NCBI GenBank assembly: GCA_000091205.1
Contig: AP006497.2
DNA from: Cyanidioschyzon merolae
Taxonomy: Eukaryota
Direction: 5' to 3' (one strand)
DNA: 64,000 bases
Shown: piece by piece, positions 10,210 to 63,343 of the stretch
Numbering within the stretch: position 1 is the stretch's first letter
Layout of the letters: each line of letters begins with the position of its first letter
Program-made: the position numbers and the translations under genes
Notes under the pieces: generated by a model
Seen by the model: the letters and a program-made list of their open reading frames with translations, nothing else
What the model was told of the DNA's origin: nothing
Databases searched by the model: none

Positions 10210-10500
10210 GCGCGTCGCAGCGTGTAACGAAGCGAACACAGGCGGATGGAGATTGTCGTATTCCCTTCCAGCTTGGATTCTTCTTTCAGTGTTTGTTTTA
10301 TCATGGACAACAGTGCATGGAAACCATCGATCGATTGGAGCAGCTTGTAAAGCGGCATGTGACGAAGCGAGCACTGGCGAATGGACTTTGGTCGTATTCC
10401 TCTTCAGCTTGGATTCTTCTTTCAGTGTTTGTTTTATCATGGACAACGATTCATGCAAACCATTCATCGAATGGAGTGTCGAGCGCTCATATGGCCGGTA
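10210..10500. repeat. Tandem direct duplication, 2 copies of about 145 bp.
   Basis: Unit 1 (from about 10231) and unit 2 (from about 10375) both contain ccagcttggattcttctttcagtgtttgttttatcatggacaac followed by related sequence. On translation the peptide (I/L)P(F/L)QLGFFFQCLFYHGQ(Q/R)(C/F)M(E/Q)TI repeats twice. Confidence 0.75.
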
Positions 10501-21468: not shown

Positions 21469-22555
21469 GTGTTGCACATAGTGCGCAGGCGTGGCGAACG
21501 CGTTCCACGTAACCGGCGTCGCGAACATACACACACACTAGGAACCGTTAAGGCACGAGGGCGCCTAGATCGGAACAGGTTTCTGGAACTGATATGGGTA
21601 CGTCGGCAGTTCGTGCGGATAGGTTTGGGACAATCTTGAAGCGGTATGCGCGAGTCTGGTCGAGAGGCGTAGCTACCAGTTCACGGGCGCAAGCGCGTCC
21701 GACGAGACCTCTCACTGCCACGCCCAGAGGATGCCTCTCGTGCGGGCGTGAAGGATCACACATGTTCGTGTGTTGGGACCTACTTTTCTGCGTCTGTGAA
21801 GGTATGGCGAACGCTGTGGTGTGGGCGTTGTGCCCGATATAGGAGATGCATCGCGCGGTATCTGTTTGATGCTGGTTCAAACGTCTCTTTTTTCCAGCGG
21901 CGGAAGTATCCGATTCTATGTTGTTTTCCTCGATGGTGCAGTAATTGATCTGCCGACGCTCCAGAACCGCCCAGAGACACTGCGGTTACGCGCATCGCTC
22001 ACACTACATCCAACATGAGAGTTTAGAGTGCAATAAAAATCGCAGCACCGCACACATACACCTAGTGCAGAATAAAATAGGACGGGCCTAGTCACCTAAA
22101 ACGAGTGTACCCTCTGAAGCTTGCATTCCTTTGCATTGTCATGAACATAAGCGTTTACGGTTTGTAGGCGACAATTTCCTTTGCTTCCTACTCATCTGCG
22201 ATTTGAAACGCGCAGGTCCCTCACGTCCGTCCAGTTCCGTGTTCAGCAACCAGGAGATGTTGATGGTAGCTGTACGATCCCGACGTCGCTGATTTCGAAT
22301 GTTGCCCGTGTACTTCATGCGCAGGCGGTAGTTGCCATCTATACTGCAGTCGATATCTGCATTTGCGTTTTATACACGCTTGGAACGTGGTTCGCGGCGT
22401 TGACACTTGACTTTGGTTAGGTGTTCCCTCTGTGTCCACCGATTCTCCATGTCCTTCGATGGCCGGTCTGTGACTCGTCAGGGCTTCCTGCATCGCTCGA
22501 CACATGCCCTGCATGGATACCGGAGGCTCCCTCGATGCTCTCCTCCGACTCCCGG

Positions 22556-22987
22556 TCAGGTGCCGCACCCCACGATTACGCGCTTGTTCGATGCGAGCGC
22601 CTCGATGATACCTGCCTGCTGCATGCACAAGCGCATGATGTTCCACCCGATAATTGATTTGTGGAACGCGATGTCGTCCATGATGAAACAAGCACTGGAA
22701 GGAGAAGCCAGGCTGGACAATACCCCGAGAAATTTCGATCCATCGACGCTCGCTTCACTTGAAGCGATGGCTCCGATGACCCAAATCCGACTCCAAGACC
22801 CTGTTTCATGCAAGCAGAAGTGACGACAGCCTCCGGGAGCGCATCTCATGAAAGGTATCATGCCGCTGTCGAAAGCCGTTTCGTCGATGACTCCATAGCC
22901 AGAGGGACTTGTCGTTCGAATGGAATCGATCACGCGACGCGGGTTGTTCAACAAGCTTTCAGCATGATTGTGTACTGAACTCCTCAA
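22556..22987 (-). other. Hypothetical ORF (143 aa) paralogous to a truncated ORF at 9974-10168 (+). The family is unknown.
   Basis: Shared peptide block: 22.6 kb RRVIDSIRTTSPSGYGVIDETAFDSGMIPFMRCAPGGCRHFCLHETGS versus 10.0 kb REMIDSVRKINLPLFVALNETIFDASVISFMGCNRGGSDLYCLHEKGS. Both are on coding-like frames. Confidence 0.25.
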
Positions 22988-23528
22988 GGGACGACTTCGG
23001 GTTTGTTCCTTCGTCCATCAAGCGGCGTGAATCGTTGCGCCCATGAGTTGCCAACGAACGGAAAGATCAACAACTTGAAGCATGCGTGATTCGAGCATGC
23101 TTTTCATACGGAAATGAAAAGCTCAGACGCTTGAAAATGTACCTTGGATCATGGTCTTGGTCATGTTACGAACGTCTGTTCGACGCTTACGCGAATCACT
23201 CTGATTCCGATGACGTCATGAATTCCAGGGGCAAGGCATCGAAGACGTCACTCTGGACATACGACCGAGAATCCTAGAACTACACATGAATCCTCAACGC
23301 ATATTTCTGCACTTTGCAAGTCGAGACTTTTGCTCTAACCCATTCGGAAACAAAAGTCACAAAGCAGGAAGCGAGCATCCGGTACACTGCCCTATTCCAG
23401 TCTGGCACACAGACCGATGCAGCAGCGCCCCGATTCGGCAGCGGAACAGAAGCGCCGCTCCTGGACACACTGCTCCGTTTGTTTTTGAGCGCTCGCCGAG
23501 CTCCGGGGAATGCGTTCCGGGAACGATC

Positions 23529-26500
23529 ATGACATCCCAGCGAGAACTCCTTCGTTACGTGGAGAGTGATTTGCGGTCTCTGGTAGCGAAGCTGGGGAAA
23601 CGAAAAGTTGAACGAGCGTTTGTCGAAGATCTCCCGTTTCTTACGGAGCGTTTCTCGAGCTGGAAGAGTGCCGTGGAACGCGTACTGACGCAGTTGCGTG
23701 AGGATGATACGCAAGCTCGTCTTTCGTTCTCACTTTCGATCGACCTGGTGGGTCACGTGCTCATCCACAACGTACAGTCAGTGGAGAACTGGCGTAAAAG
23801 TGAAGCAAGTACGCTTCTTGCACTGGGGCTTCTGCACCGTCTCGCAAGCCAGGCAGCGTTGCCAAGCCACCGCGTCGCAGACGTCGTCGCCTTGCTGAGC
23901 TATTTCGTTCTCAGTGTTCAGAAACTGGTCCTTCGAAGCGAGTTTTCGAAGCGTCGTTGGTTGATTTATGGCGAGCGCAACGGTGCCCAGGTTCCGGGAA
24001 CGAACTCGGATCAATCGGACGCAACGGACTCGTTTTCACGTCGATCCTCGCCCGGAACAGTATCTTTGGTGGAAGAGGCCCTCGAGCAAGCCACCTGCGA
24101 GCAAACAGCTGCGGTCGGACAACGTGCCACCGAAACCCAAGTGCTGCCGGGAAACGACCTAGTCTTGGTCGAGCGGCAACTGCTACGAGTCCTCCAGGTC
24201 CTTTTCGAAATACCATCTGTGCAACACAGGGCCGGTGCAGCTCAGGAATACGATGTAGACGCTTCGAAATCAGACTCAGCGGCTAGTGTCTCCAAAATGT
24301 GCCAAGCATCCCTACCACAGCGACTATTTACGCTCCTGACGCTGATTGAGCAGCTTCCCGGAGTGACTGCAGTGGTTGCTCGCACTGCAGCAGCTGCGTT
24401 AGAGCGATACTGCACAGCATTATTCGAGGATCGTCTCTGGAGAGAGCAAGTCGCGATAGCTTTCGTGGAGGATCTCTGTTTGCTGACGCTGGAACGGCCG
24501 CCTGTTCACGGCTTTGGGACGCTCTTGTCCCTGCAGGTCCAGACGAACACGAGCAGTCCAGTCGAGTTGCCGGGTGCTTCGGCCTCTGCCGCAGAGCGCA
24601 CGTCATCATCGCTGCAGCAAGAGCGACGAGCACAGGCGTCGCCCGAGGCCGAGGACCTTGACGAAGCCCGAGAGGGCCATCCAGAATCGCTATCCGCCGC
24701 TCAAGTGACGTCCACTGGTGCGATGCAACAGAAGGAAACGTATTGCCTGGAAGTGATCACCCCAAGCCCTGATGTTATGACGTCGCTGCTGGCGGAAGCG
24801 CTGGGCAGGGCGATGCGTGGTGGTCTCGCTCCCCAGGCTTGCCTGCTCAAGCGTCTTTTTCCTTTCGTCGAAGCACAGCTGAATGAGGCCGAGCTCTCCT
24901 GGTCAATATGCAGTCTCGCAGCCGCGTTAATCCAGGCACCGGTGGCCTCGTTTGGCGCCCTGCTCGCGTCACTTGCTGGAAGGATGCTGGAGCAATTAAG
25001 GGTCTCGATGGATCCGAGCTATTCATCATCTGACACGAATCCTAATCAAGTTCTGTTGATGCATCATCGCGCACTCTTGTTGATCGAGACTTTTCGCGAT
25101 GCATTGCTTACCGGAGCGTCCACTGCAGAGGACCGTGCTTTTATCAGCAACAGCAGCAGCAGCAGCAGCTCCTGGTCACCACAAGCGCTACTCCGATACC
25201 TGGAGCGCGAATCAGATAGGACGTTCGCGTCACAAAACGCTGCTGCTGGAGCAGGCGATACGACCTCAGCGCTGGGTACGGAACAAAAATCGTTGCCTTC
25301 AGTCGATGAGCGACGTCGTCTTCGGGAGGACGTTGTTACGTCCCGAGAAACAAGCGCGGAGGCCTTTTCAAAATTGCCTGCGTCGGAGACCGGGGGTATA
25401 CTCACTCAGTGGGTGGCGATGCTGCAGCTGTGTGTCACCACCGGCACATCGATGGTGACGGAGCTGCAAATGCTGCCCACAGGTCCGTTGCGGCATCAGC
25501 GCCCGCTACTTCGCCAACTCGGGCAACTTATCGAGGAGCCCAAGCATAGAAACCTGGACGGCGAACTCTGGGGGCAGCTTACGAGCGCGGCGCTGGGTCT
25601 GCTTTTCGTCTTGTTGGAAGCCACCGATCCCGTGGCGGATGTGGACTTTCTGCGACGCACCTGGCCGGACTTTTTGACGGCGTTTGGAGCTTTGCTCGCA
25701 CGTGCACAGCAGGTTCCGGCGGTGGTGCTTCAGCCGCTCATCGAACGGGGCATGGATTCTTTGCTCCAGCGTCTGGCAGTTGTACGGAGCTCTGTGGACG
25801 CGCCCTCGATCATGAATGACTCCAGCACCGACGCATCTGGGCTTCTTGGTGGCTCTGCTGGGCAGCCACCTGCGATGCATGGCTCGACGTCGGCACTGGA
25901 ACCCTTTGAGACGGTGTTCATCTGCCTGTGTCGTACCCTGCGGCTGGTGCGAAGTACACGATCCGCCTCTGCTTCTGCTTCCGACAGCGAGGCTGTGCAT
26001 GTGTTGACCTGCCTTGGGCGCGTTTTACAGAGCAACTTGCAGCGCGCGCTTTCGACAATGCACGAATCGGAGTACAACACGAACACACCGCAAGCTGTGG
26101 TCGAACGCAGGCCGCTTTGTAGTTCCTGGAGTCCCAATACTTGGCTTGCTCTCGTGGAGAGCATTCTAATCGCAGGAGACGACGATCGTGATGCTGCCTC
26201 GGGTGAGCCGATGCTTGATCCCGTGATCGACAGCAGCTTCGAGCACTGGGACAAGTACCTATTGCAGCAGCAGCAGCAGCAGCAGCAGCAGCGCGCAGTA
26301 GGCTGCGTTCCCGCAGTGGCGTTGCTACGAGCGCTTTTCACTGTTGCTCACGCGGCCCAGGAAGACACCTCCACGCGGAACCGTGCCTTTTTACATGCCG
26401 TCTTCGTCGTCAAAGCATACTTGAACGCTGTCCAGCGGCAAGCAAGGGCAGCAATTGTTGCCTCAAACGGAGATGGACCCTATACTGGAAATGCCTGGAC

Positions 26501-34089: not shown

Positions 34090-34505
34090 CGTCCATGTTG
34101 TATGGTGAGGTACATGCGCTCACCGTGCCTCACCACGGAGCTTGCATCCCGCCGTCTACGCGGCACCCTGGTATCGAGCGCGCAGTCAAGGATCCCAGAA
34201 TGATCATGTATCCTGATTCCGTGTCGGGATGGAGCATTCCTTCATTCGACGCTCTCAGTGGTATGGCAAAGCCGCTCTGTCTCCGTGCAGCCTCGGTAAC
34301 AGTAATTCAGGCGCCAATGCGGGCGCTCAAAGCAGGCACCTGTCACACGACAGAACATACGAAACGACCAATACATCCGAGAACAAACAATGGAACTTGG
34401 AGGTAAGATGCAGCATGATGGACACTTCTTCGATTACCATTACCCATCCGGCAATATGGGATTCATGGTCAATGTAAACGTTTTGTCATCGAAAAAATCA
34501 GTGTA
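34090..34505 (+). mobile_element. 5'-truncated non-LTR retrotransposon 3'-end copy (C2, diverged subfamily).
   Basis: It aligns with the LINE 3' end and with copies C1, C3 and C4 (see C1 evidence). It ends with gtcaatgtaaacgttttgtcatcgaaaaaat. Confidence 0.55.
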
Positions 34506-35699
34506 CCATTTTCATCGCGTCCGGGGTGAAGGGCGAAGCACCGGTTGGTGCATCAAAAACAGTGTTGTGTCCCTAGACTGACGCAAGTTTTGGATAAAAA
34601 CGGGCGTTTACATCTTGTATGTGGACGCGTGCTCGCAACTGAACTCGCTCTAGCACGTTGCTTGCAAACACATAACTACCCGTACATAGTAGACACGGTT
34701 CCAAGGTAGCTTCAGCGTTACCGGGAAAGCCACCGAGCCTAGTTGCAGCGCAACGTGAAGCAGTTGTCACTTGCCTGCATCTGTTCAGGACAACTGAACG
34801 AGACAGTTTTCAAGTTGTCCACAGTTTAGGCTCAGTTAGCGAGAGGAATACCGTTGAACAGCGCCAGGTACCTGTCCAGAGTCATACCTCCCGTATCTGT
34901 AGTACATCCGCTGGAACGCTTGAGGCAGTTCTCTGCCAGCGCTCATGCGAGCCGTCGGCTACAGCCCTGTGGTGCCGCGGGACTCTTTAAACGCGGTAGA
35001 AATGGCAGCAGCAAACACTGCAGAATGATAAATAACAACAAAAGAAACCGGTCACAAACTATACATGAAAGAACAACTATCTTAACGCCCCATGCACCAC
35101 GTCCGCCTAGGAGGTCTAGTATTTCCGGAGGAGCTCTGAAAGTGGGTTAACACGGGGTGCTTGGGCGACGGCGAAGGAAGCCCACACCAGGGACCTTGAC
35201 CGTAACGAACGGAGGCGCGGAGGCAGTTGCAGCAGAGAATGATGACGAGAATTCTGAGCAGTTATCCGCTGCTCTCGAAACAACGCTGCGGGTTCCGGCG
35301 CAAATCCTGGATCCATCCTTGAACTCGGGCTACGTTTTACCTCCTACCTTGGCTACCTACCTCAACTTTGGAAGCAATCTCGGCGGATTCTGCGGAAGAC
35401 GGCTGGCAGCATGTTCGCGGTCGAAGCTGGAATGAGCGACTTACCCGCCTACGTGTTTGGGGAGCGGATACGAAGCCGCTGAAAGGGTGGTTTGCAGACT
35501 GTTCCCAGTGATTGAGGGGAGCTTCACGTGTCCGGCAAGATAAAGGTCGCATTCGAATCGACCTTGACTAGAGTCCTTCTGATTCTACGCTAGCGCTGCA
35601 GCAGACACTCAGTGAACGACTGGAATGCAGGAGGCAATGGTGGCGTGTGCGTTCTCACACCCTGGGGAGGGTGCATCTAAATTGACGACGTATCTCTGG

Positions 35700-38600
35700 A
35701 GTACCGCAGCGCTATTCCTATTCCCTTATGCGCTACGACTCGATAGGTTTCGCATCATGGAATATTTGTGGGATAACCTCGAAACTATACGACGAGATAT
35801 CGAATTACCAGTACAGTAATGAAGAACTGATACACGTCGAGGACTGTACAAAAGGAAAAGAGATCCAACGGGATACGGAGAAGGAGACACAGAAACCTCA
35901 TGATCCACCTAGATGCAAAATAACCAGAGAAAGCAGCTCAGGAAAGAGCCCGAAGAAGAAGAAGACCAGCAAGAAAAAAACAGAAGAATAGAAAAAAGAA
36001 CTCCCAAACGAGCCCATCACAAGTTATCCCCTGAAAGGGCACCCCAGCGGGAACTCAAGAAAGCCGTCGCCGAACCCAGGCACCTGCTCACAGCGCTGAA
36101 GATCCGAAATGCCGTGCATGCAAATCTTTAGACCAATTGGCACGCGAGTTTGTAGATGGGAATCAGAAGACTGCCAGAGAACTGGGACTGCTTGCACCAG
36201 AACACAACAGTTGCAAACCTCAGTACCTCAAACGACGTACCAAAACTCGGATTGATGAATGCCACCGACTCAATAAGATCCTCAACCGCACCGCCATACG
36301 CGCCAACGCCGGAGACAAGGAAGCGAAGGCAGTCCCAACGGCGCTACAGGCACAACATGAGGAAGCTATCAAAAGAAAGAAGAAACGTTCCAGAGAAGAC
36401 AAACGAGGGGATCGAAACCGCAAAATCGCCTCCCTGGCGAAATCTATGCTCGAGAGCACCACCGAAGATGAGACCTGGCGCTACATTCGATCGAGACTGG
36501 ACCCACCAAAAAAGTGCTTGGGGCTCACACCAATCGTTTATAAGAAAGCGCTGAGGACGGAGAGTGCCTCAGTGAATGAGGCCTGGACGGACCACGGCAC
36601 AGAATTACATGAAGACGCAACTGGGCACTGCCGAAACCGAAACTATTGGCACCAATATGCTGCAGAACTACCACGCCTCGACCCGGTACCGGAATGGAAC
36701 GACCCAATCTTCTGGCCTGAATCTGTTCGGGCCCTGTTAAGCTCATGCAACCGCAAAACACCTGGCATTGACGGTATCGCTGCCGAGTGGATGAAACTGG
36801 TGATCCCAAAATACGAGACAACAGGGACACCATCGATACCAGATAAACCTGACACAATCTTAGGCAAACGCCTTCTGGAGCTCATCCAACGCATGTTTGA
36901 AGAAGCCTACATCCCTGATGTATGGAGGGCTGCCGAGGTCGCACCGATCCTCAAAAAGGACTCCCACATACACAGACACGAACAACTACCGGCCTATCGG
37001 CCTCATCCCGTCAATCATGAAGCTACTTTTGCGCCAACCTCACGAACCGGATCCAGAGAGGCCTCGAGGAACGCAAGTTCTTCGCCCCAGGGAGGGCTGG
37101 ATTCCGGAGCCGCGAGGAGTGCATGAGCCATGCCCTGACCCTCACTGAAGTGGCGCAACGTCGCTTTATTCGTGACCGACAACCAACTTACGTATGCTTC
37201 ATTGACTTCCAAAAGGCCTTTGACACGGTCCCGCACGAGGCCCTATTTTTGAAGATGGAACGAGCCGGAGTCTCCGCAAAGTGCTTGGCGTTCTTCCGTG
37301 CGCTCTCTGCAGACTCGTGGATGCGCATCCGACTGGGCGACGGCTGAAGAACCCCTTCCATAAGAATCCGCCGTGGACTGCGGCAGGGCGAGCGCGCATC
37401 CCCGCTCCGTTTTAACATCTTCATCAACGATCTGCTGAACAACTGCAGACAATTCGCGGCTGAGGCGCCGTGGATAGACTGTGGAGATGCTCGGTGAGGA
37501 GCGCCCACATGGGAACTGCCTCGAAGGCCTTCTACTTGCGGACGATGTCGTGCTGTTGGCACCCGCCCTGGAAACGCTTGCGGCTAGCATGGAACAAGTC
37601 AGCGCCTGGGCCGATCGCTGGGAGATGAACGTAGGAGCATCGAAGTGCGGCGTCATGGTCATCCATGGAGACTCGCAGAGCATTCGCAATCGCTCGTGGC
37701 GGTTGCAGAATCAGGAAATTCCGATCGTGGAAAAATATCGCTACCTGGGGGTCGGTCTCACGCCGACGCTCGACGAAAAGGCACACGTCGACGTGGTGAT
37801 CGCCAAGATGCATAGACGTACAGCGATCGCACGCCCAGTCCTATCCGACCCCTCTATCCCCTTAGCAATCCGTACCAGGGCACGAAGGATGTGTATCATC
37901 CAGCCTGCGACCTGGGGTGCTGAATGGTGCGGCATGAAGCACCCAAATGCCTCGCGTCTGCAGACAGCCGCCAACAGGGCAATGAGACTCGTTGTTGTTG
38001 GATGCTCAGTGCAGAGCAGAGCAACCACCCCGCTGGCACTCGGACCTGAACTCCAAATACTCTCAATAGAAGCGATAGCACCAGGTTGCCGGGCACGCAT
38101 ACGGGCCAAAGGGCGCACTATGCGCACCTCTTTGAGTCGGGTTTTCATGCAGACCCCAACGCACCGCAAGAACACTTGGATGAAATCAACGCAGATTTGG
38201 GTGAAGCGCCTCTTAGGAGACAACATGCTCCAATCGTTCCCCAGGAATACAGAATTCTCCCGTCGCCTGAAGCGAACGGTCCAAACAACAGTACGGGAAT
38301 GTAGACATGCAGTCAGTCGCGCCCTTAACGCCGGCTTGACTCTATACCGGAACTACAACCTAGCATACACATGCAAGTACTGGTGGGAGGCGCTGGAGTT
38401 CCCGGGACTTGCTCGAGGTACCCAGTGGCTCGCGAAAATCCGCGTTGGTGGCTTCTGGCTACCAGCACGGGCTCTAAGCCGTATGGGAACACTGGAATCG
38501 CACTGGGAATCACACTGTCCCTGCTGTGGGGATGAGACCCCCAAGACGCTGACATATTTAGGCTTACAGTGCCCGCGCTGGATGCAGGAGCGCAACGAGC

Positions 38601-39300
38601 TCCTTGAAGGACAGCAGCAGCTGGGCATCATCGTGATAGCCGAAGGCCGGACACTCACTCTGAGTGTAGCACTGGCAACTGATGGTCCGCTAACGGAGCC
38701 TCAGCGCTCATTAATGGCGAACAAACTCACATGCTACCTTCTAGAAAAAAGGGTCCAGCGAATCGGATGCGAACACGGGTTTAGTGTTCTTTGTGCCTAC
38801 CCACTGGTGGGTGTCAAGCACAAACCCGCATTGCCAACCGACAACAACGCATTCCATGCATGATCACGAAGGAGAGAGGCGGCTCCCAGGATATATCCGA
38901 ACAGCCATGTTTCTCCAGCGTGTCGTGCAGCGAAGGCAAGCCTGCATCCGCAGACTGTCCAAGCACAAACTGACGTCGAGTTCCGATTCTACGTCGGGTG
39001 AAACACGCCTCGAGCCGACGCCCGCTGTGGTACGGTAACGCCGTTCTAGCTCGATGAACTATCTGCTCTAGCGTTCAAGCGCAAAGGCGAATATCGAACG
39101 GCAGGTACGAGGCACACACGATAGGACGTATGAAACGACCGGAATATCCGAGAAGAAGTATAGGTAATGGAACTTGGAAGTAGGCTGTTTGATGGATACT
39201 TCACCGCGCATTGGAAAACACAAAAAAAGTAAGAAAAGAAAAATGCGCATAATCGGAGAACGCTGGCCAAAGTAAACGTTTCGTCAATGAAAAAAATGCC
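35700..39300 (+). mobile_element. Degenerate LINE-like non-LTR retrotransposon (about 3.6 kb). It has an APE-endonuclease remnant at the 5' end, a frameshifted reverse transcriptase and a 3' tail.
   Basis: SWNICGI at about 35750 resembles the start of the L1-type AP endonuclease domain (SWN.NG). RT motifs lie in four different frames: PGIDGIAAEWMKLV...VWRAAEVAPILKK (motif 0/1), TNNYRPIGLIPSIMKLL (motif 2), FIDFQKAFDTVPHEAL (motif 3) and LLLADDVVLLA (YxDD-type motif 5). The 3' end at 38.9-39.3 kb is shared with five truncated copies elsewhere in the window. The boundaries are approximate. Confidence 0.8.
36137..38863 (+). pseudogene. LINE ORF2 reverse transcriptase region, inactivated by at least three frameshifts.
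   Basis: Track ORFs 36137..37126 (frame 2), 36897..37148 (frame 0), 37123..37347 (frame 1) and 37481..38863 (frame 2) each carry consecutive RT motifs in the canonical order. Confidence 0.8.
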
Positions 39301-39508
39301 GCAGTTGAAGGGAAACGTGATCTTGATATCTAGCATGTAGCTCTAATGTAAACGCTGTATTTTCGTTACCTTCATAGCCAAGTATAGTTTTCAGTTCATT
39401 GGAGTTCCAAACCTCAAACATGTGTATTCAATTGTTTTGTCGCAGTATATAACAGAAGCGTTCAAGGAGCTTTCTTTTTCAAAAAAAAAAAACTAAAAAA
39501 GGAAAGTT

Positions 39509-41660
39509 ATGAAAAAGCAAGTCGACAATCCTGGAGGCCGAGGGTCGTCGGCTGCCAAAAAAAAAACAAAAAACTCTGCCGAGTCCAGAAGAAAAGGAAG
39601 AGAAGAAGGACCGAAAGGAGGAGGCTCTCCGTCGAAGGCGGCAAGAAAGACGAATGTACGACGAGATGGTTGTGAAAGCCGGTTTTCTTAAACATATCAA
39701 GGATCCGTACAGGGAAAACTTGCGTGACGCTTTCGAAAAACGTGTCGACTCGTACTCCAAGAGTACTGTGAAGGCGTCGTCAGGGCTGATGCATTTGGTG
39801 AGCGAGATGTATCGCGACGTGACGCACATGGAAACGGTCGAGATTCGGGGCGAGTCTCTCGACATCGCCTTTATTCGTCACCTGATGCTTGATACAGGTG
39901 AAGCGCGGAGGGAAAATGTGCTAGTGCATGCCCTCCACGAAAAACATCCCTTTGACGGGTTCGAGGGTACTCGGTACAAGGGTGACCGGAATATTTACGA
40001 CTATGGGGCCATGAAGTAACTCACGAATCTGAAGAACCGTTTGACAGTGAACCTCGAACGTTTCATGATACGCGCCGTGTTTGCGCTCTACCCGGGCATC
40101 TCTCGCAAAGGAAAATGGGCGATTATCAATGGCATCACGAACGATCGCAAACATGAAGATGAGGTCGAATTTGTCGACAAGAAGGCGTCAAACGAGAACA
40201 CGAATGCAGCTTCTGTCATCCGTGCGGCTATAAAAGAGCATCGTGCAGTCTCGGGGCTGACGAACCCAACAGAAAAGGTATTAGATTTGAAAAAAGATAA
40301 GGAAAGATACGATCGCCTCGTCCTACGGTATTTCGTGTTTTAGGACCGAGAGCTCGAACGCAAGGCAGAGATGAAGCAGAGCGAGGAAAAAAATGAAGAG
40401 TGGGAGAGACGGAAGGCGTTCCTAATGGGGAAGCGCTTCAACGTCGTTCCAATATGCAACATCAAGTCACATTTCGTGACTGTCGACTCCGGCGTCCTTT
40501 ACGGCATCATGAAGGAGATCGGTCCGGAGTTCAACGTTAGCAGGGAGGAGTTCTCCAATGAAGCCCGTGAGACGTACTGGAAGAGTATCTTCGATTTCAA
40601 ACGTCTCAAAGTAAGCAAACAAAAGGTATTCACTGGGATGATCGAAACCGATGGGATGGCCATGTGTGTACACTATCGGCGGTTGAAGAAAGATCGTCCA
40701 GTCCCGCCCTCGGCAGCGCCCGTGACGAAGGATGAAGAAAAGGAGGAGGCTGGTCCTGCGACTCGGCAGGTAGAGGATAACGACCTTGTCGTTGGCTCGG
40801 TGAAGCATGAGGATGAGAAGGAGGCGGATCCTGCCACACAGAAAGTGCAGGATAACGACATTGTCGTCGGCACAGCCCCCGGAAACACTAATATCATAAC
40901 CATCTCTGTACCAAAGCGTGCGGAAGATGGTACTGATGGTAACTTATGTCAGAAAGACATGCGTCTTTTGAGGTTCTCGAGAGCGAGATACTATAGAGAA
41001 TCCGGTATAATGAATGCGAGGGAGAAAATTGGTACGTGGAATGCAGGAATGAAGGATCACCTGGAAGCTTTGAGCGAGATGACTAGCCGAGGAGCGGACT
41101 TTCAAGCTTTTCGGGAGTTCATGGAAGTTCGCGTTGCTCGTTGGGATGCACTGTGGAAAGAGTATACAAAGCCTCGGTGGGCTCGTCTACGTATGAATCT
41201 ATTCGGTGGGAGGCAGCGAGCGTCCGCGAACTTTTTCAATCAGTTGAGTGCCCTCAAAGAGGACAAGACTCAAAGGCTCGTAGTAGCATATGGAGCAGGG
41301 CGCTGGAAGACCCAAAAAGAAACTATGCCAGCTCCAACGACAAGAACATACAAGGAGTGTGCACGGCGTTTCGTTACGATACCTGTAGATGAGTTCCGAA
41401 CGTCCTAAACACAGCATGAACTGGGTTGTACACTTCAGAGCGTCGAGATGGAAAAGTGCCAGCGGAGTGCTGAGGATATAGCAACGTACGGACCGCTGAC
41501 GGAGGAGCTAATGGAAAGGAGGGCGAAAGTTCGGGGACTACTCGCATTAGTAAGTACAACCAGCGATGGCAAGAAACGTATGGAGTTTGTTCAACGAGAC
41601 TTTAACGCTACCATGAATATTCGAAGAGGTGCGGTGTTGGAGAAAAGACCTCCAGAGTGA
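39509..41660 (+). pseudogene. TnpB/Fanzor-like (RuvC-type) ORF of about 715 aa if read through. It is degenerate, with one frameshift in an A-run and three in-frame stop codons, and it lies about 200 bp downstream of the LINE 3' end.
   Basis: Five same-frame segments (39513-39653, 39654-40019, 40041-40343, 40371-41408, 41448-41660) are separated only by single in-frame stops. The ATG at 39509 is one frame off, next to the A10 run at 39556-39566. Segment ends read ...RRFVTIPVDEFRTS (compare TnpB ...VdP.yTSq before the zinc finger) and ...QRDFNATMNIRRGAV (compare TnpB RuvC-III DADvNAAiNI.rrG). A candidate RuvC-I reads [15 protein letters not shown] (compare Fanzor GIDPGvrNlaT, with the catalytic Asp replaced by Ala). 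The Zn-finger cysteines are mostly absent. The N-terminus is Lys/Glu-rich low complexity. There is an internal 24-aa tandem repeat ([15 protein letters not shown] / [15 protein letters not shown]). Confidence 0.45.
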
Positions 41661-41831
41661 ACAAGAAAGAACTTTATTGGACAACATCTCAAAGTCGATT
41701 TATATGAGAAGAAGTTGGAACCAGCAGTGGGTGGCCGGTCCAAAAAGACGGGGAGGCGTGTTTGCACTTCAGTTGGAGACGCTTTTGCTAGGGCACGTTC
41801 ACCACCACTCCTGTACACCGGTGGCGATGGC

Positions 41832-45600: not shown

Positions 45601-47952
45601 TGCAGCTGTTTGCGATAGCGGATTAACGAGGTTCGATGATCGTCGGCATCGTTCCTCGAGGACTTGTTCAACGGTTCGCGTCAAAATGCCACTGAACCCT
45701 GTAATGTCAAATGACAGGTTCCGTTTGGAAAACAAAGCCTTCTCTCTTTCTGGCCATCTCCGAGATGCCATTCGACATCAGCATGGTATCTACCTTGGAA
45801 AATGCTCGCAGAGGCGCCCGTCTCTTCTGTTTATATGGAACAGAGTCTTGCACTCGGCCTTGATTCGTCTTGGCGATCGCTGGCAGAGGAGCGGGCGTCA
45901 CAAGTTTGCACGAAGACAGCGTCGAAAGATCGAGATTTCTCGATATCACCTCTGGGCCAGATATCCCTTCCTTCACCTGTCCCTTGACGTGTACCGCCAC
46001 GTTCCTGAAACCCTTTATCGACTGGAACAGCGTTCGTTTGCTTGTACAGCGGACTGTGTACACGTCGAGCGGATCATCAAGAAGAAACCCTTAATGGTAT
46101 CGTTCAGCACCGGGCGTGGGAGCGGAGAAGAGAATCGGTGCGAGCCTTCTGTACCCGTCAAGGGCATCTGCCGAGCGATAATGAGAGCGTTCACGCGCCA
46201 AAGAGCAAGCCCCTGAGGAGAATGTGTTGTTGTTGGCATGTGGAAAGACCTGACCACAGGCATCTATAATCGCCTCGATGGGCGTCCTGCGGCTGTATAC
46301 AACGAAGATGAAAACATGGCAAGCGAAGCGTAGGTCGTAACCCCCCTCTGTTCATGACATGCATCGGCAGTAGCCGGAAGCAGCGTACTCGGGGCTTTGA
46401 CGCAACCATCAGCAACCTTCGGCTGCTCCCGATGGAGCTGGGGCGAAACGAGACACCAGCATATTCAAAGCTGTACATTCGGAAAAAGAAGCAGTCGCAG
46501 AAAAACCCCGTAAAGGTTGGCGTTCATGAAACTGGGAACAAACCCAGCCTTTAGAATGTACGTGCGAGTTAGAGGAACCGTCCAATTGTTATGCTCCTAA
46601 ATCTATAGATACGAAGAGTGTCTCCTCATTTTCGCATTGTGATTGAACAAAGTGAACGCTAGTGTAGACGGACAGGTCAGCTGCTCTCTTTCGGTTCGCA
46701 GCTGGTTCCGTATTCTCACCAGCCTGACGTTCATTTGCTGTATGAACTTGTTTGCTCCCAGAGTAGCGTTTATGTATCGGTACCAGCTATTCGTATCTGC
46801 TTTCGAGCGGGTGTTTCAGCAGGTCAACTGCGAGGGTGTGCGGATCCCGCTGCAGCTAACGGGTTTCCGCACTGCACTTGAGCCGTCGCAAACTTGCCAA
46901 TAAACCGTCAGCCGCTGGTTCGAATGCTTCCGGACTCCAGCAGGTAGCCCTCTGTTCGCGCGCGTCCTGCACTGCATTCGCTGGTATCATATGCGGCGGG
47001 CGTACCAGGGACGTTTTGGACAGAGAATGACGGCTTGAGCGGAAACGAACCCCCGACGACGGGCCCGAGCGTGCACAGTCGTGGAATGTTGGATCGCGAT
47101 ACCTCGACGATCGCTCTTTGGCAGGGTTGCGAGACTTTCCTCGCCGCTTTGTACTGTCGAGACAACAGCTGGATACTCGGTCACAACCCTGGACTTGAAT
47201 GCTGCATTCGTCAGGACAACGACAATGCAGCCAGCGTGCGCATGAGGCACCGAGAAGCCACAAATCGCTCCGAAAGTACCGACATACACGGAACTCGCCG
47301 ACTCGGTGCAGTACCGCGAAAAAGGCCCTCGCTTCGGTGCACCATCATGTGAATGCGTTCACGACGAGAACATAAGTACAAGACCCAGTACCAAAAGAAC
47401 TTGGTGCCTACACTGAAAGCTCGTTATCGAAGTCGCAAAATCAGCGCCTCAAGCTCTCACTTGGATGAATGTCCGAATGAACTGGGCATTTGCCTCCATC
47501 CTGGACGCGTCTCTATCGGTTCAACGTGAGAGCATATGCATACGCTCACTGGGCCGCGCTCCTTCAACGACGGCAACAAGACCTGGTCAATGAGTACTCG
47601 TGCCTGTGCAGCCCTGATTCCACACGAGACCACAATCGTCCATTTTCGGGCTCTTCACCCAGGACAAGGTATCTTCAAGACGCCATGCACAGAGAGGGCA
47701 AGCGCAGCGACGCAGCGTGCATCCATCTGGAGAAAGAAAATGGAATGCTCGCCTGTACCGGCATCAGCTGCATCCACCGAGAATGCCCTCGCCACTCAAC
47801 CGAACGATCGAGCTGTGGTACGCCATTGCGAGCCTTCAACAGAGACTCGGATCGTTGCTTACGGCATCGCACACGATTTCATCGCGAGCCAGTACTCCTT
47901 GTGACTCTGGCTCGACATGCAGCGTTCAGCTGCTCTGCTGTGCGGATGTTAG

Positions 47953-48912: not shown

Positions 48913-49489
48913 AAGCGCTCTGAGAAATCCAAGACCAGACAAGGTCAGAGGACAGCTCCCAGTGCGGCTTCTTTCACGCGACAAGAGGCCTGAGCGGAAA
49001 ACCTTGGATAGAGCCCTGCAATCGCACCGGCGCCGCTGCAAGGCGTCTACGCGACGTCAAACAGACAGTGCGCGAGCTCGCACCTGTAGCTTAACTTGAG
49101 CACGTCACGCTTGATGAGTGCGTAACCAGCTGGGTCAACTGCCCCGGCTCTGCTGGTACCGCAACACGAACGCGTAACGAACGAATGAATAAATGCAGGA
49201 AATGAAAATGTGCGCATTGCGCGCCACTAGGCAGCGCCAGGCGTACCAAGCGCGTACTGTAAAGAAAAAAAGAACAGAAACGAAACAGTAACTAGCAACG
49301 AGATAACATTTTCTTTCCCGTCTAGGACAAGCCTTAAAAGGGAGAAGAGGTTTCCGGGTTATCGAACGTTTCCTTCCTAGACGGAAGGCCCGCGATCCGG
49401 ACGAGTGTGCTGGGCTCGTGCTTCATGCTCTCTCCGGTTGCGGGCGCTGTAGTGAGATCTGAGCAGCTCCTCCGCAACGCAGTTTATTC

Positions 49490-49905
49490 TAGGAGCGGAC
49501 TACTGCATGTGGGCGTCGCGCTGGTCGCAATGGACTCCCAGTCCATCGCTCCCTGCCACCGCAGGCAACAGGTCTGTCTGCGCATTTCGCAGGATCCCAA
49601 CATGTTATTGAACCCCGATTCTGTGTCGGGTGAAGCATTCCGTGATTCGGCGCCCTCAGCGGTATGAAAAAGCCCTCCAGTCGCCGTGATGCACCTGTTC
49701 CAGCGGTGTAGGCGATATGGCTGGAGCTCAAAGCAGGCTCAGTGAACGATAGAACGTACTGAACGACCAGTACATCCGAAAGAAAGTACAAGTAATGGAA
49801 CGTGGAGAGAGGGTGCAACATGGTAGTCGTTTTACCGATCATCAAATTCCATACCGCATCCCGGAACATACGTGGTCAATGGAAATCTTTTGTCATCGGA
49901 AAGAG
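49490..49905 (+). mobile_element. 5'-truncated non-LTR retrotransposon 3'-end copy (C3, diverged subfamily). It sits immediately 5' of a second truncated copy, giving a nested or tandem insertion.
   Basis: It aligns with C1, C2, C4 and the LINE 3' end. Its tail (...gtggtcaatggaaatcttttgtcatcggaaagagaa) abuts the 5' end of fragment B at about 49905. Confidence 0.55.
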
Positions 49906-50475
49906 AATACCTTCTAGGCAAAAGGTCCAGCGAATCGGATGCGCATACGGGTTTCGTGCGCTTTCTGTGCTTACCTTCTGTGGTGGGTGTCACGCACAAA
50001 CCCGCATTGCCAACCGACAACAATGCATTCCATGCATGATCACGAAGGAGAGAGGCCGCTCCCAGGATATATCCTAACAGCCAAGTTTCTCCAGGGTGTC
50101 GTGCAGCGAAGACAAGCCTGCATCCGCAGACTCTCCGAGCACGAACAGACGATGAGACCCGATTCTACGTCGGATGAACCACGCCTCAAGCCGACGCCCT
50201 CTGTAGTATAGCAACGCCGTTCTGTCTCCGTGCAGCGACCGCACCGGCGCTATAGGCGCTATTGCTGTCGCTTTCGGCAGGCTCGGCACACGATAGGACG
50301 TATGAAACGACCAGAATATCTGAGACGAAGTATAGGTAATGGATCTTGAGTGTAGGGGGTTGATGGATACCTCATTGCGCACTGAAAAAAAGAGAAAAAA
50401 GTAAGAAAAGAAAAATGCACATTATCGGAGAACGCTGGTCCATGGAAACGTTTTGTCAATGAAAAAGAAATCGCA
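49905..50475 (+). mobile_element. 5'-truncated copy (about 570 bp) of the same LINE subfamily as the 35.7-39.3 kb element (fragment B).
   Basis: It is near-identical by eye to 38740-39300: ...aaaggtccagcgaatcggatgcg.a.acgggttt..., shared ORF2 C-terminal peptide CQPTT(T/M)HSMHDHEGER(R/P)LPGYI.TA.FLQ.VVQRRQACIRRLS, and shared tail acacgataggacgtatgaaacgacc.gaatatc.gaga.gaagtataggtaatgga...agtaagaaaagaaaaatgc.ca.tatcggagaacgctgg. Confidence 0.75.
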
Positions 50476-50568
50476 AAGAGAATCGCCGTAGCGTGCAGCG
50501 CGTCGATTGCGCATATCTATTTCGACGTGCTCCTGCTGCTTTTGGCTGTTAAAGTGCTCGCCACTGCT

Positions 50569-51075
50569 ATGCCGAACCCACGTGTGTATCTCGATATAGA
50601 AATCAACAAAAGCCCTGCAGGCAAGATCGTTTGCGAGTTGTTCGCTGATACCGTGCCGAAGACAGCTGAAAACTTCCGGCAGTTCTGTACGGGAGAGTCG
50701 AAAAAGGCGGCAGGGGGAAGCTACGAAGGGTGTCCTTTCCATAGGATCATTCCCGGTTTCATGATGCAAGGCGGAGACTACGAGAGAAAGAACGGCACTG
50801 GAGGGCGGAGCATCTACGGTGGCAAGTTTCCGGACGAGAACTTTACGCATCGGCACACCGGACGGGGGTTGCTCTCCATGGCAAATGCAGGCAAGGACAC
50901 GAATGGTAGCCAGTTTTTCATCACGTTCGCGCAAACGCCTTGGCTTGACGGGAAGCACGTCGTTTTTGGGAAAGTTGTTGAAGGGCTCGAGGTCCTTGAC
51001 AAGGTCGAGGCTGTAGGGAGTCGCTCGGGGACACCCACCGCAAGTGTGGTGATCGCATCCTGTGGCCAGCTGTGA
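50569..51075 (+). CDS. Cyclophilin-type peptidyl-prolyl cis-trans isomerase (CypA-like), 168 aa. The track ORF begins at a GTG at 50527.
   Basis: ATG verified at 50569. [43 protein letters not shown]...[43 protein letters not shown]...[56 protein letters not shown] is collinear with human PPIA. Confidence 0.95.
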
Positions 51076-53482: not shown

Positions 53483-54673
53483 TTACAGTGGACGCGCAGT
53501 GGAGCTTGATGAAGCAGGCAGCTTAAGCCATTGTCTCATTTTTTCGTAGACTGCGAAACTGATGCCAACAGTGGGCGCTGCTTTGATAAAGTTAAGACTG
53601 AGTCCGCGATAGAGCGCCCGAACGCCTTCGGCACGCACGATACTGTAAATGGTGGAAACGACGCCTTGGCTGGGGATCCGCGGCTGCCGCTGGATAAACC
53701 TGCTCTGCTTTCGATCAACCTTGGTTTCCCACGCGTCCATGTTGTCACCAGCAGCAGCAGGAGCAGCAGCAGCAACATCAAAGTCCGTTGTTCGATGATG
53801 ATGATGATAATGATCCCAGCAGTGCGCTCGGCGGCGTACCGTTTCCAGCGGGTATGCTGCGCTCTGGCCAATAAGGCCGGCGCTGCCGCCACAGACCAGC
53901 GCGGATAAAGTTGGATAACGTTCCGCAAAGCCATTGTTTTGCGCCAGTTGCCGCAGGACGCCATACATGTAAAAGTTGATGCCTGCATATGGTATGATGC
54001 CAACGAGCGTTGCGGAGAGCCCACTGTACAAGCCACGCACACCGCCCCGTCGAAAGAGTGAACAAAGTGCGTCAAGGATACTGTGGTAGATCATACCGGG
54101 ATGTGCACCCCCGGAGAGCGCCACCGCCTGGGCAGCGAGGCGCGTACGTACGAGGTCCAGCGGATAGGTGGCCACGACGGCCGTGGAGCCCGCCAGAGCA
54201 CCCGCCAGAAACCGGAGGAAAGGTGGCGACTGCGACGAAGATGCGGCACTCTGCTGGTGCCTCCATCCACGAGCCAACATTCGGGACAGAAGCTCATGAT
54301 ATTTTTCAAAGGCTGTAAACTGTATCGCTGCGTAGGGAAAGATGCGGGTCAGAGTCGCGCTGTTTCCGCGAAAAAAACCGCGCAAACCCTCTTCTATGTA
54401 GATACTCCGAACAGTTTGCGGTATGGAGGAGTACGCACGCGCACCTCCATGCAGTTTCGAGACCTGAAGGAGGATTTTGACACGATCGAACGGGGCTACT
54501 GCAGTCTTCGCGACAGCTCCAGCTGTTCCACCCGCCAATAACGTTTTCAATAGCGTGACTGCGCGCTGCACTTCGCGAGTCTCTGGTTGAGAAGTCGGGC
54601 CCACGAAACTCCGGTGCACGGGTTTTGTCCTTGGCCGAGCGTGCGTGCGTGCATCTGCTGAATTTTCGTCCAT
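53483..54673 (-). CDS. Mitochondrial carrier family (SLC25) protein of about 396 aa with a His-rich and a Leu-rich low-complexity insert. The start is taken at the ATG at 54673; the track ORF begins one codon upstream on a TTG.
   Basis: Three carrier repeats with the signature LLAGGTAGAVAKTAVAPFDRVKILLQV, ...FLAGALAGSTAVVATYPLDLVRTRLAAQ and ...LVCGGSAGLIGQSAAYPLETVRRR (P.D/E..K/R motifs). The inserts HCWDHYHHHHRTTDFDVAAAAPAAAG and an L8 run are encoded by the (GAT)n and (CAG)n tracts at 53797-53813 and 53750-53774. The stop lies only 23 bp from the RPL18A stop, so the 3' ends are convergent. Confidence 0.85.
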   Translation of the reverse strand: MDENSADARTHARPRTKPVHRSFVGPTSQPETREVQRAVTLLKTLLAGGTAGAVAKTAVAPFDRVKILLQVSKLHGGARAYSSIPQTVRSIYIEEGLRGFFRGNSATLTRIFPYAAIQFTAFEKYHELLSRMLARGWRHQQSAASSSQSPPFLRFLAGALAGSTAVVATYPLDLVRTRLAAQAVALSGGAHPGMIYHSILDALCSLFRRGGVRGLYSGLSATLVGIIPYAGINFYMYGVLRQLAQNNGFAERYPTLSALVCGGSAGLIGQSAAYPLETVRRRAHCWDHYHHHHRTTDFDVAAAAPAAAGDNMDAWETKVDRKQSRFIQRQPRIPSQGVVSTIYSIVRAEGVRALYRGLSLNFIKAAPTVGISFAVYEKMRQWLKLPASSSSTARPL

Positions 54674-61070: not shown

Positions 61071-63343
61071 GAATGTTCATTATTTGCATGCTTTTGTCGA
61101 TGCAGCATTCGGGAACGACACGACGGAGCGATCTCGCTGAAACCCGAACTCGAATAAGCGACGTGACACGTTCAGTGAGACCTTCGGCAGGGGCTTTTTT
61201 CAACAACTCGCCAGGGAACGACGTCGATTAATTCGCGTCCTCAGTCTAGTGGCGCATATTGCTGGGTCCACGAGTTTCCTGAAAACGTAAAGATCGAAAA
61301 CTTGAAGAATATGTTATTGAAGCATGCGGTATGTATGGAGAAGAGAGACGTGGAGGCTAGTACTTGCTAGCAGGAAGATATCGATTACTTTATGAATCAG
61401 TGGTACACTGCATCGCGAATCATTTCCAAGCCACTTACGTCAAGAATCGCACCGGCAAACTTTCGAAGGAGTCGCTCTGAAACGACGACAGAGAATCCGA
61501 AAACTTCGTACGAGGAGTCCCTGAGCTCTGATACCTGCACTCCGTGCCTCCAGGCCGTGAATCTACAGTGCATTCGGGAACGTAATCGAGAGGCAGGAAC
61601 AAGGCAGCCTGTTCAGTGTACCAGGTTCATTGAGCACGAGTCCTTCGAAGGTGACCGCTGCCCAGCTCCCGTCAAGGCGCTGGGTCAACCAGCACGCAGT
61701 CAGCCCTATTTGCTTCCACATCCATAGCGCCAGGTGTCGCACAGTGGCATATCATATCAAACGGACATGAACTGCGTTTCAAGAGGAAAAAACCCTGCCG
61801 AGATGCCAGACGTGGAGACGCAGGCTCGCATCCCGGATCTCGACTACGAAACAAATTCTAGTCGGCAAGTTTCAGGGCTCTGGTGCTGTTTGACAAAGTG
61901 CATCCGCGCTGACAGACTATCTGAGGGTAAAGCGCAAAGCGTCTTAGTCTAGACGAGACAACCGTTGGTAGTGCAAACACGACATAGTTGTTGCCGGAAA
62001 AGCAAAGCTCCGCGAAAGCACTCGCGTCCCTGGCAACATTGCGATCGACGTTTCGCGAGCTGTCGCGTTCGATGAACAAACGAAAGTTGCGTCGTTCGCG
62101 AACGTCAAGTCCTCAGTGGAAACTGCGTTACTCGACCAGAACGAAAGTTTTTATAGGTAAAAGAGCAAGACTGAACCTTCTATGGGGTTTTACCCTTTTC
62201 ACTGGACCTGGCGGACCCGCTCTGGTGGTCAGGTGCGACTCTTTGGCGTGCTTGTGACGCTTCCACTTCTCGGTGGGAGCTGGTGGTGGTCGCAAAGCGC
62301 GTCCTTCCACGAACGATCCACAAATGTTGTACCTAACGACCGATTTCAGCGTGAAAAAGATGGAGGCAGTAACTCACGGGAGCTACCGCCTCCACAGTGA
62401 CGGTTGTAAGAGTTCTGGGAGTTGCCACGCCTTACTGCAAACGAGGTCGACCTGGTCGCTGCTCACCGGGAGGTTGTCTCGGGCCCAGCTCCGCCCGAGC
62501 TTTTTCCGCCAAGAGTCGCTCTGACTCGAGCAGTGCGTCGGCTTTGTCTCTGAGCAAACGAACAAACCGTGGAGCGTTGACGATCATAAGCACCAGAGCC
62601 ATGAGTATAATGTGCGCGTACGGGGCCGGTACTTTGGAAAAGTACCAGCCCAAAGCGCGCGCCATGTACTCCCCTATCACTGGACGACTCGAAATGGACT
62701 CCATGTTGCTCAAGGCTTGGCAAGTGTGGAGCTTGTCTTGAAGTGCAGGTGAGGTTTCGCTTCCACAGTGCCAGCTTCCGTTACCTTCCCAGGAACCTGT
62801 GCCGTTGACGCCACTGCCGCTGCCGCCGTCGATTGATAACAACCGCTTGCGGGAGCGCTGACGGAGACACAGTAGCCTTTGTAACAACCACTACTTGCAG
62901 TGATGCTTGCCTTTGTACGAACTGGTGCGGTAGACGCCTCTACAGCTGCTCGTAGCGAACAAAGGCACCTGAAAGCGCAAGCGTATAATCGTTAGCGTCG
63001 CGGCGTCATGACGCACAGCGGCAGCAAGTCTCCAACGACACGCCCTGTTGACTTTGGACGACAGGCATCGTTTCTTCAGCGTGTACGTTTGGGACCTACG
63101 CATTCGCGTACTTTTGCCTTTGTAAAGTAGAGTTTGAGTTGTTGGACCAGTTTTTTGGTGGAAGCCTCGGAATAGTTGGACAGCGTGTCTCGAACGATCT
63201 CGTGACATTGTGATCAACGTCGAGCGCTCTCCACGACCGCGTTTGTGCTGGTTGTCGCCTCGCACAACCGCCTCGAACTGTGCGATGCTCGGTACGCAAC
63301 AAGTTCAACAATCACGGCAGACCTGGGAACTAGACGCAGCATC

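Follow-up and report, generated by a model that had tools for sequence, protein, structure and literature searches.

A decayed LINE and short retroposons sharing its 3' module on chromosome 15 of Cyanidioschyzon merolae

Results

LINE A is a decayed non-LTR retrotransposon

The window analysed here is a 64-kb stretch of chromosome 15 of Cyanidioschyzon merolae 10D; five of its long open reading frames (ORFs) are exact matches to the proteins BAM81618, BAM81620, BAM81621, BAM81627 and BAM81635. The DNA has a G+C content of ~ 55%, is gene-dense and nearly devoid of introns. It contains one long interspersed nuclear element (LINE), here called LINE A, and five short copies of the 3' end of this LINE, called B, C1, C2, C3 and C4, which together with LINE A occupy ~ 7 kb or 11% of the window. 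In the C. merolae genome paper, 26 class I elements were counted, all of them resembling elements that lack long terminal repeats (non-LTR elements) and three with an intact reverse transcriptase (RT) ORF, and the transposon content was given as 0.7% (PMC1955436). This census covers RT-related elements only and short RT-less copies are not mentioned in it. LINE A is almost certainly one of the 26 elements; a description of the short elements in C. merolae was not found in the literature, which was searched without Repbase.

In the first-pass annotation, made from the sequence of the window, the LINE was placed at 35.7–39.3 kb with a length of 3.6 kb. Comparison with homologous LINEs from the metagenome loci L001, L124 and L123 revealed 87–90% identity from positions 35034, 35045 and 35177 on, respectively, and the upstream flanks of these copies are unlike each other. 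Therefore, LINE A starts near 35034, ~ 670 bp further upstream, and spans ~ 4.26 kb (35034–39296, plus strand). Its three frames were stitched together to one protein before searches. The stitched protein had 87 homologues, many of them with an apurinic/apyrimidinic endonuclease (APE) and an RT; the closest relatives (53–84% identity) were fragments from JGI hot-spring metagenomes and it was the more distant ones in which APE (PF03372/PF14529) and RT were present. The RT domain (36950–37770, +; residues 284–553 of the stitched protein) matched Pfam RVT_1 with an E-value of 4e-25 and, in the PDB, R2 and human L1 ORF2p with equal scores of ~ 1e-18. These matches identify LINE A as a non-LTR retrotransposon, as had been proposed. 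Terminal repeats are absent, the tails are A6 to A8, 5' truncation is variable and target-site duplications are found on B and on the metagenome copies L077 and L097, all of which are hallmarks of non-LTR elements. A clade could not be called from the PDB search, in which L1 and R2 are not separable. Downstream of the RT lies a C-terminal Cys/His motif, HCPCCGDETPKTLTYLGLQCPRW (C-x2-C...H-x4-C; 38513–38582, +), that is also present in the homologues P0014 and P0006; together with weak plant L1-like matches with zf-RVT among the searches of the LINE A protein, it hints at the L1/Tx1 group.

The coding part is decayed. The RT is disrupted by frameshifts near 36965–37030 and 37488 and by a stop at ~ 37346–37348; the frameshifts, noticed already in the first reading of the sequence, are seen in the translated frames and, as indels, in comparison with other copies. 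Among the four A-family copies (LINE A, L001, L124 and L123), the frameshifts at 36965–37030 are private to the window copy, and in the majority consensus a reading frame of 485 codons that covers most of the RT is restored, with some frameshifts persisting. The long reading frame starts with an endonuclease-like N-terminal motif, MRYDSIGFASWNICGI...LIHVED (35725–35835, +), which had been taken for an APE remnant. By eye only, a likeness is seen between SWNICGI...LIHVED and the N-terminal ~ 35 residues of the P0014 APE (TWNVGGL...ALQETKA). The remaining APE body (~ 190 residues) is absent from all four A-family copies, Pfam detected neither an APE nor a restriction-enzyme-like (REL) endonuclease at E ≤ 1 in the 392 amino acids upstream of the RT, and BLASTP of this region against the APE of P0014 gave no match. 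What is left of the proposed remnant is the motif of ~ 35 amino acids, but not an APE domain. Since more distant homologues do carry PF03372, LINE A is a deletion variant and not a member of an endonuclease-less family. Neither direct repeats flanking LINE A (blastn self-comparison) nor a target-site duplication were found. LINE A is an inactive, dead element.

The ORF ends downstream of the Cys/His motif with a stop codon at 38861–38863. The last 42 codons, the 3' untranslated region and an A7 tail (38735–39296, +) form the part of LINE A that is common to all short copies and is referred to below as the 3' module. The LINE of L123 (2968–7007, corresponding to 35177–39296 of the window) is a mosaic with ~ 90% identity to LINE A up to 38280–38530 and ~ 60% beyond, indicating that LINE bodies have swapped their 3' ends.

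Five short copies of the 3' module

The six copies of a common 3' end that had been proposed for the window are mutually alignable by blastn self-comparison and MAFFT. LINE A (38735–39294) and B (49908–50466) share 82.7% identity over 568 nt (E 2e-160), C3 and C4 72% over 583 nt (E 7e-79) and C2 and C4 76% over 321 nt; C1 matched the other copies with E-values of 1e-14 to 1e-22. B (49909–50471, +; 563 nt by blastn) is a full-length retroposon that consists of the module only; it had been called nearly identical to the LINE but is only 83% identical to the module of LINE A. C3 (49269–49908, +; ~ 640 nt) is a full-length retroposon made up of a head and the module, the latter located by nhmmer at 49346–49906 and the former detected with an E-value of 1e-23. 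C4 (54993–55581, −; nhmmer) is a C-type copy with an A8 tail that is 5'-truncated by ~ 59 nt and keeps the last 44 nt of the head (head-profile match 55581–55539, E 0.008). C2 (34056–34497, +), with an A6 tail, is a 5'-truncated C-type copy that starts at about module position 107. C1 (1308–1832, −; blastn and nhmmer) is divergent, with a nearly complete module (profile positions 38–595). C1, C3 and C4 each reach 110–220 nt further 5' than first annotated. A shortened head on C1, upstream to ~ 1880, was borderline only (p 0.03–0.05) and is not claimed.

The metagenome collection was scanned once with ATGGAACTTGGARGTA, which returned 120 loci, 15 of them with real copies, and an nhmmer profile built from the six window copies was searched against the window and the metagenome loci. 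This gave 31 matches or, after duplicate loci had been collapsed, 28 distinct copies; the flanks of the copy-bearing loci are not orthologous to one another. All copies have short A-rich tails and they are 55–84% identical to one another. An identity matrix over the module revealed an A/B group (75–84%; LINE A, L001, L124, B, L060 and L119), a neighbouring group (70–73%; L077, L097 and L104) and a C group (60–76%; C2, C3, C4 and most metagenome copies), with C1 as an outlier (55–69% to all other copies). The A/B and C groups, which had been described as two subfamilies, do separate, but the division is approximate only in view of C1. The C-type module is carried by none of the sampled LINEs. 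In a strain with 99.6% identity to the window, B occupies the same site, as does C4, or at least its 3' end. No empty site or polymorphism was found, the contigs with the cyclophilin locus next to B coming only from 99.5–99.6% identical strains in which B is already present. The copies in the window are old and inactive.

Short copies have recurrent 5' ends

All short copies had been regarded as 5' truncations. This holds for C2 and C4, but B and C3 are complete and represent two discrete classes of non-autonomous elements, of ~ 560 and ~ 640 nt, respectively, whose 5' ends recur in independent insertions; the full-length size is ~ 560 nt in the B type and 620–660 nt in the C type. The head-less copies B, L077, L097 and L060 have starts that agree within ~ 6 nt and upstream DNA that is unrelated. 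Their start corresponds to position 38730–38736 of LINE A, 128 nt before the stop codon, where a small conserved hairpin (ACCTTC...GAAGGT) has its 5' base. Exact target duplications are present at both ends of B (9 nt, AAAGAGAAT), L077 (11 nt, ATCAGTGCTTC) and L097 (10 nt, CCAGCAATTG); in B the duplication amounts to 12 nt with one mismatch, CG[G/C]AAAGAGAAT. The suggested check of each copy for such duplications thus gave a clear result for B, but LINE A, C1, C2 and C4 have no detectable one, and neither L046 nor L071 has a convincing one; L116 showed a decayed match only (11/15).

Since B consists of LINE sequence from end to end, with the final 42 codons of the ORF as well as its stop codon, and since 5' truncation is the rule among LINEs, every short copy might be an independent random 5' truncation of full-length LINE RNA, without any separate non-autonomous family. 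Copies truncated at scattered positions do exist (profile positions 107, 199, 245, 294, 305, 325 and 451–480). This explanation is nevertheless unlikely, because the 5' ends of four independent head-less insertions coincide to within ~ 6 nt, three of these insertions being bounded by target-site duplications, and because six independent C-type copies have in common a 103-nt head that is found neither in LINE A nor in any other sampled LINE. A sharp full-length mode accompanied by scattered truncations indicates retroposed RNAs of defined length and not random truncation of a 4–5 kb LINE RNA. In the B type, the 5' end may mark the point where transcription starts, where the RNA is processed or where the RT is very strongly stopped.

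The head of the C type

In C3, the head extends over 103 nt, AAAGAACAGAAACGAA...TCGAACGTTT (49269–49371, +), and it is shared with L046, L116, both copies in L071 and L127 (nhmmer E 1e-16 to 1e-25). It begins with AAAGAACAGAAAC; the homology of head-bearing copies ends upstream of it and the flanks are unrelated. None of the sampled LINE copies has this head. Matches at gathering score to Rfam families (ribozymes, tRNA, 5S, 7SL, small nuclear RNAs) were not found in the whole window, a search of 49200–50600 at E ≤ 10 gave one chance-level match only, and ARAGORN detected no tRNA or tRNA-like sequence. A self-cleaving ribozyme or a tRNA-like 5' end was rejected on these results; by inspection, the first hairpin also has no room for a fold like that of the hepatitis delta virus ribozyme. 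The elements therefore lack the head derived from an RNA polymerase III (Pol III) gene (tRNA, 7SL, 5S or small nuclear RNA) of a canonical short interspersed nuclear element (SINE), but like SINEs they are short and non-coding, have a LINE-derived 3' end and are flanked by target-site duplications.

A possible, though tentative, origin of the C type is internal deletion of its own, unsampled partner LINE, leaving the 5' end and the 3' module as in RIME/ingi and NARTc/L1Tc; the head would then carry an internal promoter. Three observations fit this origin: the junction between head and module coincides with the start of the head-less B type, the C-type module is 50–60% identical to the A family, so that the partner would belong to a different subfamily, and, by eye, the head and the 5' end of LINE A are both A-rich and share ACAGAAA..AAC..ACTAG. 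The last of these, and with it the identification of the head as a LINE 5' end, failed the nhmmer head profile, which matched no LINE 5' end at E ≤ 10, and the shuffle test: Smith-Waterman scores of the head against three LINE 5' ends did not stand out from those of shuffled sequences and control regions (lowest p of 15 tests, 0.017). Moreover, L122, the only other LINE subfamily sampled, has no match to the head.

B is inserted in the tail of C3

C3 and B had been recognised as directly abutted, and the direction of the insertion is settled by the target-site duplication. The tail of C3 ends with ...GTCATCGGAAAGAGAAT and B follows directly; the tail of B ends with ...GTCAATGAAAAAGAAAT and is followed by CGCAAAGAGAAT (50472–50483, +) and then by unrelated DNA. 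CGCAAAGAGAAT is the 3' copy of the target duplication, and its 5' copy, CGGAAAGAGAAT (49897–49908, +), is at the same time the end of the C3 tail; the two agree in 11/12 positions, 9 nt being exact. Since the sequence behind B repeats the end of the C3 tail, B was inserted into the A-rich end of the older C3, duplicating 12 bp.

Conservation and predicted folding of the module

The columns that are invariant or nearly so across 18 aligned copies are concentrated in two places, GAACGTACGAAACGACCAG...ATGGAACTTGGAGGTAG and the terminal GGTCAATGTAAACGTTTTGTCATCG with its short A run. The most conserved internal block, GGACGTATGAAACGACC...ATGGAACTTGGAAGTAG, is located at 39115–39185 (+) in LINE A, with equivalent blocks at 50293–50360, 49752–49815 and 34350–34410 (+) and at 55170–55086 and 1470–1397 (−); the terminal motif, (G)CCAAAGTAAACGTTTCGTCAATG and then a brief run of A, is at 39266–39296 (+). 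A conserved block and tail motif had been noted before, and motif counts agree: ATGGAACTTGGAGGTAG occurs five times with ≤ 3 mismatches versus 0.08 expected, and the tail GTAAACGTTTTGTCATCGAAAA four times versus 0 expected. As is typical of LINEs of the stringent type, LINE and short partners share a conserved 3' sequence beyond poly(A), in 18 copies. That the RT recognises the 3' end is a reasonable inference, given the conserved tail common to LINE and short copies and the shortness of the A runs.

The first-pass annotation had suggested folding of the tail to look for a 3' stem-loop, which is supported neither by folding nor by covariation. RNAalifold predicted no pairs in the last ~ 85 nt of 14 C-type copies and nine invariant pairs (−1.6 kcal/mol) in the last ~ 180 nt of 18 copies, and ten terminal 50-nt segments folded no better than shuffles (z −1.4 to +1.5). 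Two structures specified by hand, a hairpin at the terminus (UUUUG/CGAAA) and a helix of GATGGA with TCCATC, showed no covariation and were rejected. In the minimum-energy fold of C4 both conserved motifs are paired, AGAACGU with ACGUUUU and GACCA with UGGUC. These motif-motif helices (GAACGT/ACGTTT and GACCA/TGGTC) are paired in 81–83% of the alignment cells, a value that reflects conservation of both sides and not compensatory change, the structure being derived from one of the aligned sequences; covariation was not above that of shuffles.

The 5' part of the module is more distinctly structured, with a consensus fold of −22.6 kcal/mol and a long CGGACGAGU/ACUCGUCCG helix in the C type and a weaker fold of −7.7 kcal/mol with a few compensatory pairs in the A/B type. 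Such a highly structured prediction (z-score −1.9 for B) would suit copies that are DNA-level duplications or a family of structured non-coding RNA genes, unrelated to retroposition. This is hardly credible, given the target-site duplications, A tails, 5' truncations and continuity with the LINE ORF, the unrelated flanks and the lack of a match to any Rfam family.

Copies lie mostly in promoter-side intergenic DNA

As first annotated, copies are found near gene starts. C1 has its tail 170 nt upstream of the ATG of the glucokinase gene (position 1135, minus strand; Pfam 1.5e-85) and is oriented like this gene, the ATG of the cyclophilin gene (50569) is ~ 95 nt from the tail of B, and C4 is located ~ 370 nt upstream of a mitochondrial-carrier start. 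The genes around 25 copies (window and 20 metagenome loci) were surveyed with crude ORF calls, to which the glucokinase and the 168-amino-acid cyclophilin were added by hand. Copies were typically 70–450 nt from an ORF start. The nearest ORF ≤ 1.5 kb downstream of the tail was co-oriented in 13/15 cases, usually at a distance of 70–630 nt, and the 15 classifiable copies were in divergent (~ 7) or tandem (8) but never in convergent (3'-3') intergenic regions.

Co-orientation, absence from convergent regions and the positions of C1, B and C4 upstream of three genes could mean that copies are kept as host regulatory sequence, as promoter or 5'-untranslated-region modules. We consider this quite improbable. 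Within tandem regions, four copies were co-oriented and four anti-oriented, so that the apparent bias toward the downstream gene, which was rejected as such, reduces to a preference for 5' intergenic DNA, and this location alone explains the pattern. Furthermore, apart from the block conserved in the LINE as well, the copies have diverged strongly, and the gene calls are crude ORF calls. Copies are thus preferentially located in promoter-side intergenic DNA, with no further orientation preference.

Neighbouring repeats and other features of the window

The 3' end of LINE A abuts, at 39296/39297, the left end of a very abundant interspersed repeat, of which 39297–41826 is a member. The repeat recurs with the same ends in other contexts (L001, L025, L116, L123 and L127) and is probably the 253-copy, ~ 3.2-kb element of PMC1955436. 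Its ORF (40371–41408, 345 amino acids), which includes a 75-bp tandem duplication with 77% identity (40727–40871), has 292 homologous protein clusters in hot-spring metagenomes (53–94% identity), many with PF26935/DUF8286. The left end of this repeat is found repeatedly beside retroelement ends: in L001 (1063–1120) and L123 (2923–2968) the LINE 5' end is 45–57 nt from an inverted copy of the repeat, and in L127 (8987–9080) the C-type head is ~ 93 nt from another copy. The DNA downstream of LINE A thus lies inverted upstream of the LINE in L001 and L123; an inversion between these loci and the window was rejected, as 39297–41826 is the abundant repeat and not single-copy.

A dispersed repeat family unrelated to the LINE (64–85% identity) is present at 10023–10476, 22492–22932, 45706–46439, 22978–23281 and 61205–61505. 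Its member at 10023–10476 contains a local tandem duplication (10217–10340 / 10352–10476), and the family is also matched in the metagenome loci L046, L077, L083, L088 and L097. An ORF of 918 amino acids (12942–15698), for which the C. merolae annotation gives 'unknown ABC anion transporter', has bacterial-type ABC permease domains (BPD_transp_1, 1e-21) and could have come from bacteria. Low-complexity stretches of 25–32 nt with 93–97% identity in four coding regions (8941–8972, 25145–25171, 26264–26295 and 53746–53777) are probably simple codon repeats.

Discussion

The window probably contains one inactive LINE and five old insertions of non-autonomous retroposons that borrow the ~ 555-nt 3' module of the LINE family. 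The RNAs of the short elements would be copied into the genome by LINE-encoded RT via target-primed reverse transcription, the template being chosen not by a long poly(A) tail but by the conserved sequence at its 3' end. Priming at an A-rich nick would give rise to target-site duplications of ~ 9–15 bp, the short A run and occasional 5' truncation, and B would have landed in this way in the A-rich tail of C3.

Several observations weigh against this scenario. An intact partner LINE was not sampled: all four A-family copies are frameshifted and without the APE body, so that trans-mobilisation would need other, unsampled family members. The 3' recognition structure expected of 'stringent' LINEs is unsupported by folding or covariation, the PDB scores of the RT for R2 and L1 ORF2p are equal and point to no single clade, and target-site duplications were not found for LINE A, C1, C2 and C4. 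Finally, the B type is wholly LINE sequence, and a strong site-specific RT stop on LINE RNA could mimic a discrete family.

A further-reaching proposal is that the ~ 555-nt module is a self-contained mobile RNA unit with its own 5'-end signal, an internal start or processing site, at the ACCTTC/GAAGGT hairpin 128 nt inside the LINE ORF. It would retropose by itself (B type) or behind a foreign head (C type), or be swapped between LINE bodies (mosaic of L123), and, with several hundred copies by gene starts, be the main retroelement of Cyanidioschyzon. We regard this as doubtful.

LINE A is an ordinary LINE with non-autonomous partners, and the mechanism is within known LINE/SINE biology. As in eel UnaL2/UnaSINE1 and zebrafish ZfL2 (PMC1636434, PMC4176376), a non-autonomous element ends with the 3' sequence of a LINE; the partners have this sequence conserved and are diverged elsewhere, and the terminal A run is short instead of a long poly(A). 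Unlike in these systems, where 50–100 nt are shared, the shared part extends over ~ 555 nt into the ORF, the C. merolae elements have no tRNA, 5S or 7SL head, and no counterpart could be detected of the conserved 3' hairpin by which recognition is defined in UnaL2.

In trypanosomatids, the pairs ingi/RIME and L1Tc/NARTc (PMC2996970) are likewise from protists, with non-autonomous elements of a few hundred nt that consist of LINE sequence and have no Pol III head; B is LINE-derived throughout. However, RIME and NARTc keep a motif of the LINE 5' end, whereas B has no 5' LINE part and the head of the C type shows no significant similarity to the 5' ends of the LINEs sampled. EhSINE1/EhLINE1 of Entamoeba (PMC2996970) is similar in that a protist SINE of ~ 550 nt without a recognised Pol III-gene head is mobilised through a 3' end that it has in common with a LINE, the sampled LINE copies are all defective and the SINE is flanked by target-site duplications. 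The shared part is ~ 70 bp in Entamoeba but ~ 555 nt in C. merolae. EhLINEs use a restriction-enzyme-like endonuclease, whereas homologues of LINE A carry APE.

The insertion of B is reminiscent of Zepp of Chlorella, which reportedly forms tail-into-tail clusters. In both cases a new copy is inserted head-to-tail in the A-rich tail of an older one, in C3-B with a target-site duplication, but the window has one such pair only, which is neither part of a long nested array nor telomeric.

These findings matter mainly for the count of repeats in a model minimal genome: C. merolae serves as a model for minimal eukaryotic genomes and is quoted with 26 retroelements and 0.7% transposons. Five short copies were found in the 64-kb window and three further ones in ~ 75 kb of related contigs, which had been fetched for another reason, the ORF of a different repeat family. 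By rough extrapolation, and if this density is typical, several hundred copies would be present per genome and make up a few percent of it. With RT-less partners in the hundreds, the repeat census would have to be revised, and if the module were indeed a self-contained unit, the quoted transposon content of 0.7% would be several-fold too low. At such a density, the short copies could also serve as prospective dated insertion markers in comparisons of Cyanidioschyzon and Cyanidiococcus strains, and they would be elements to bear in mind when promoters of C. merolae are dissected.

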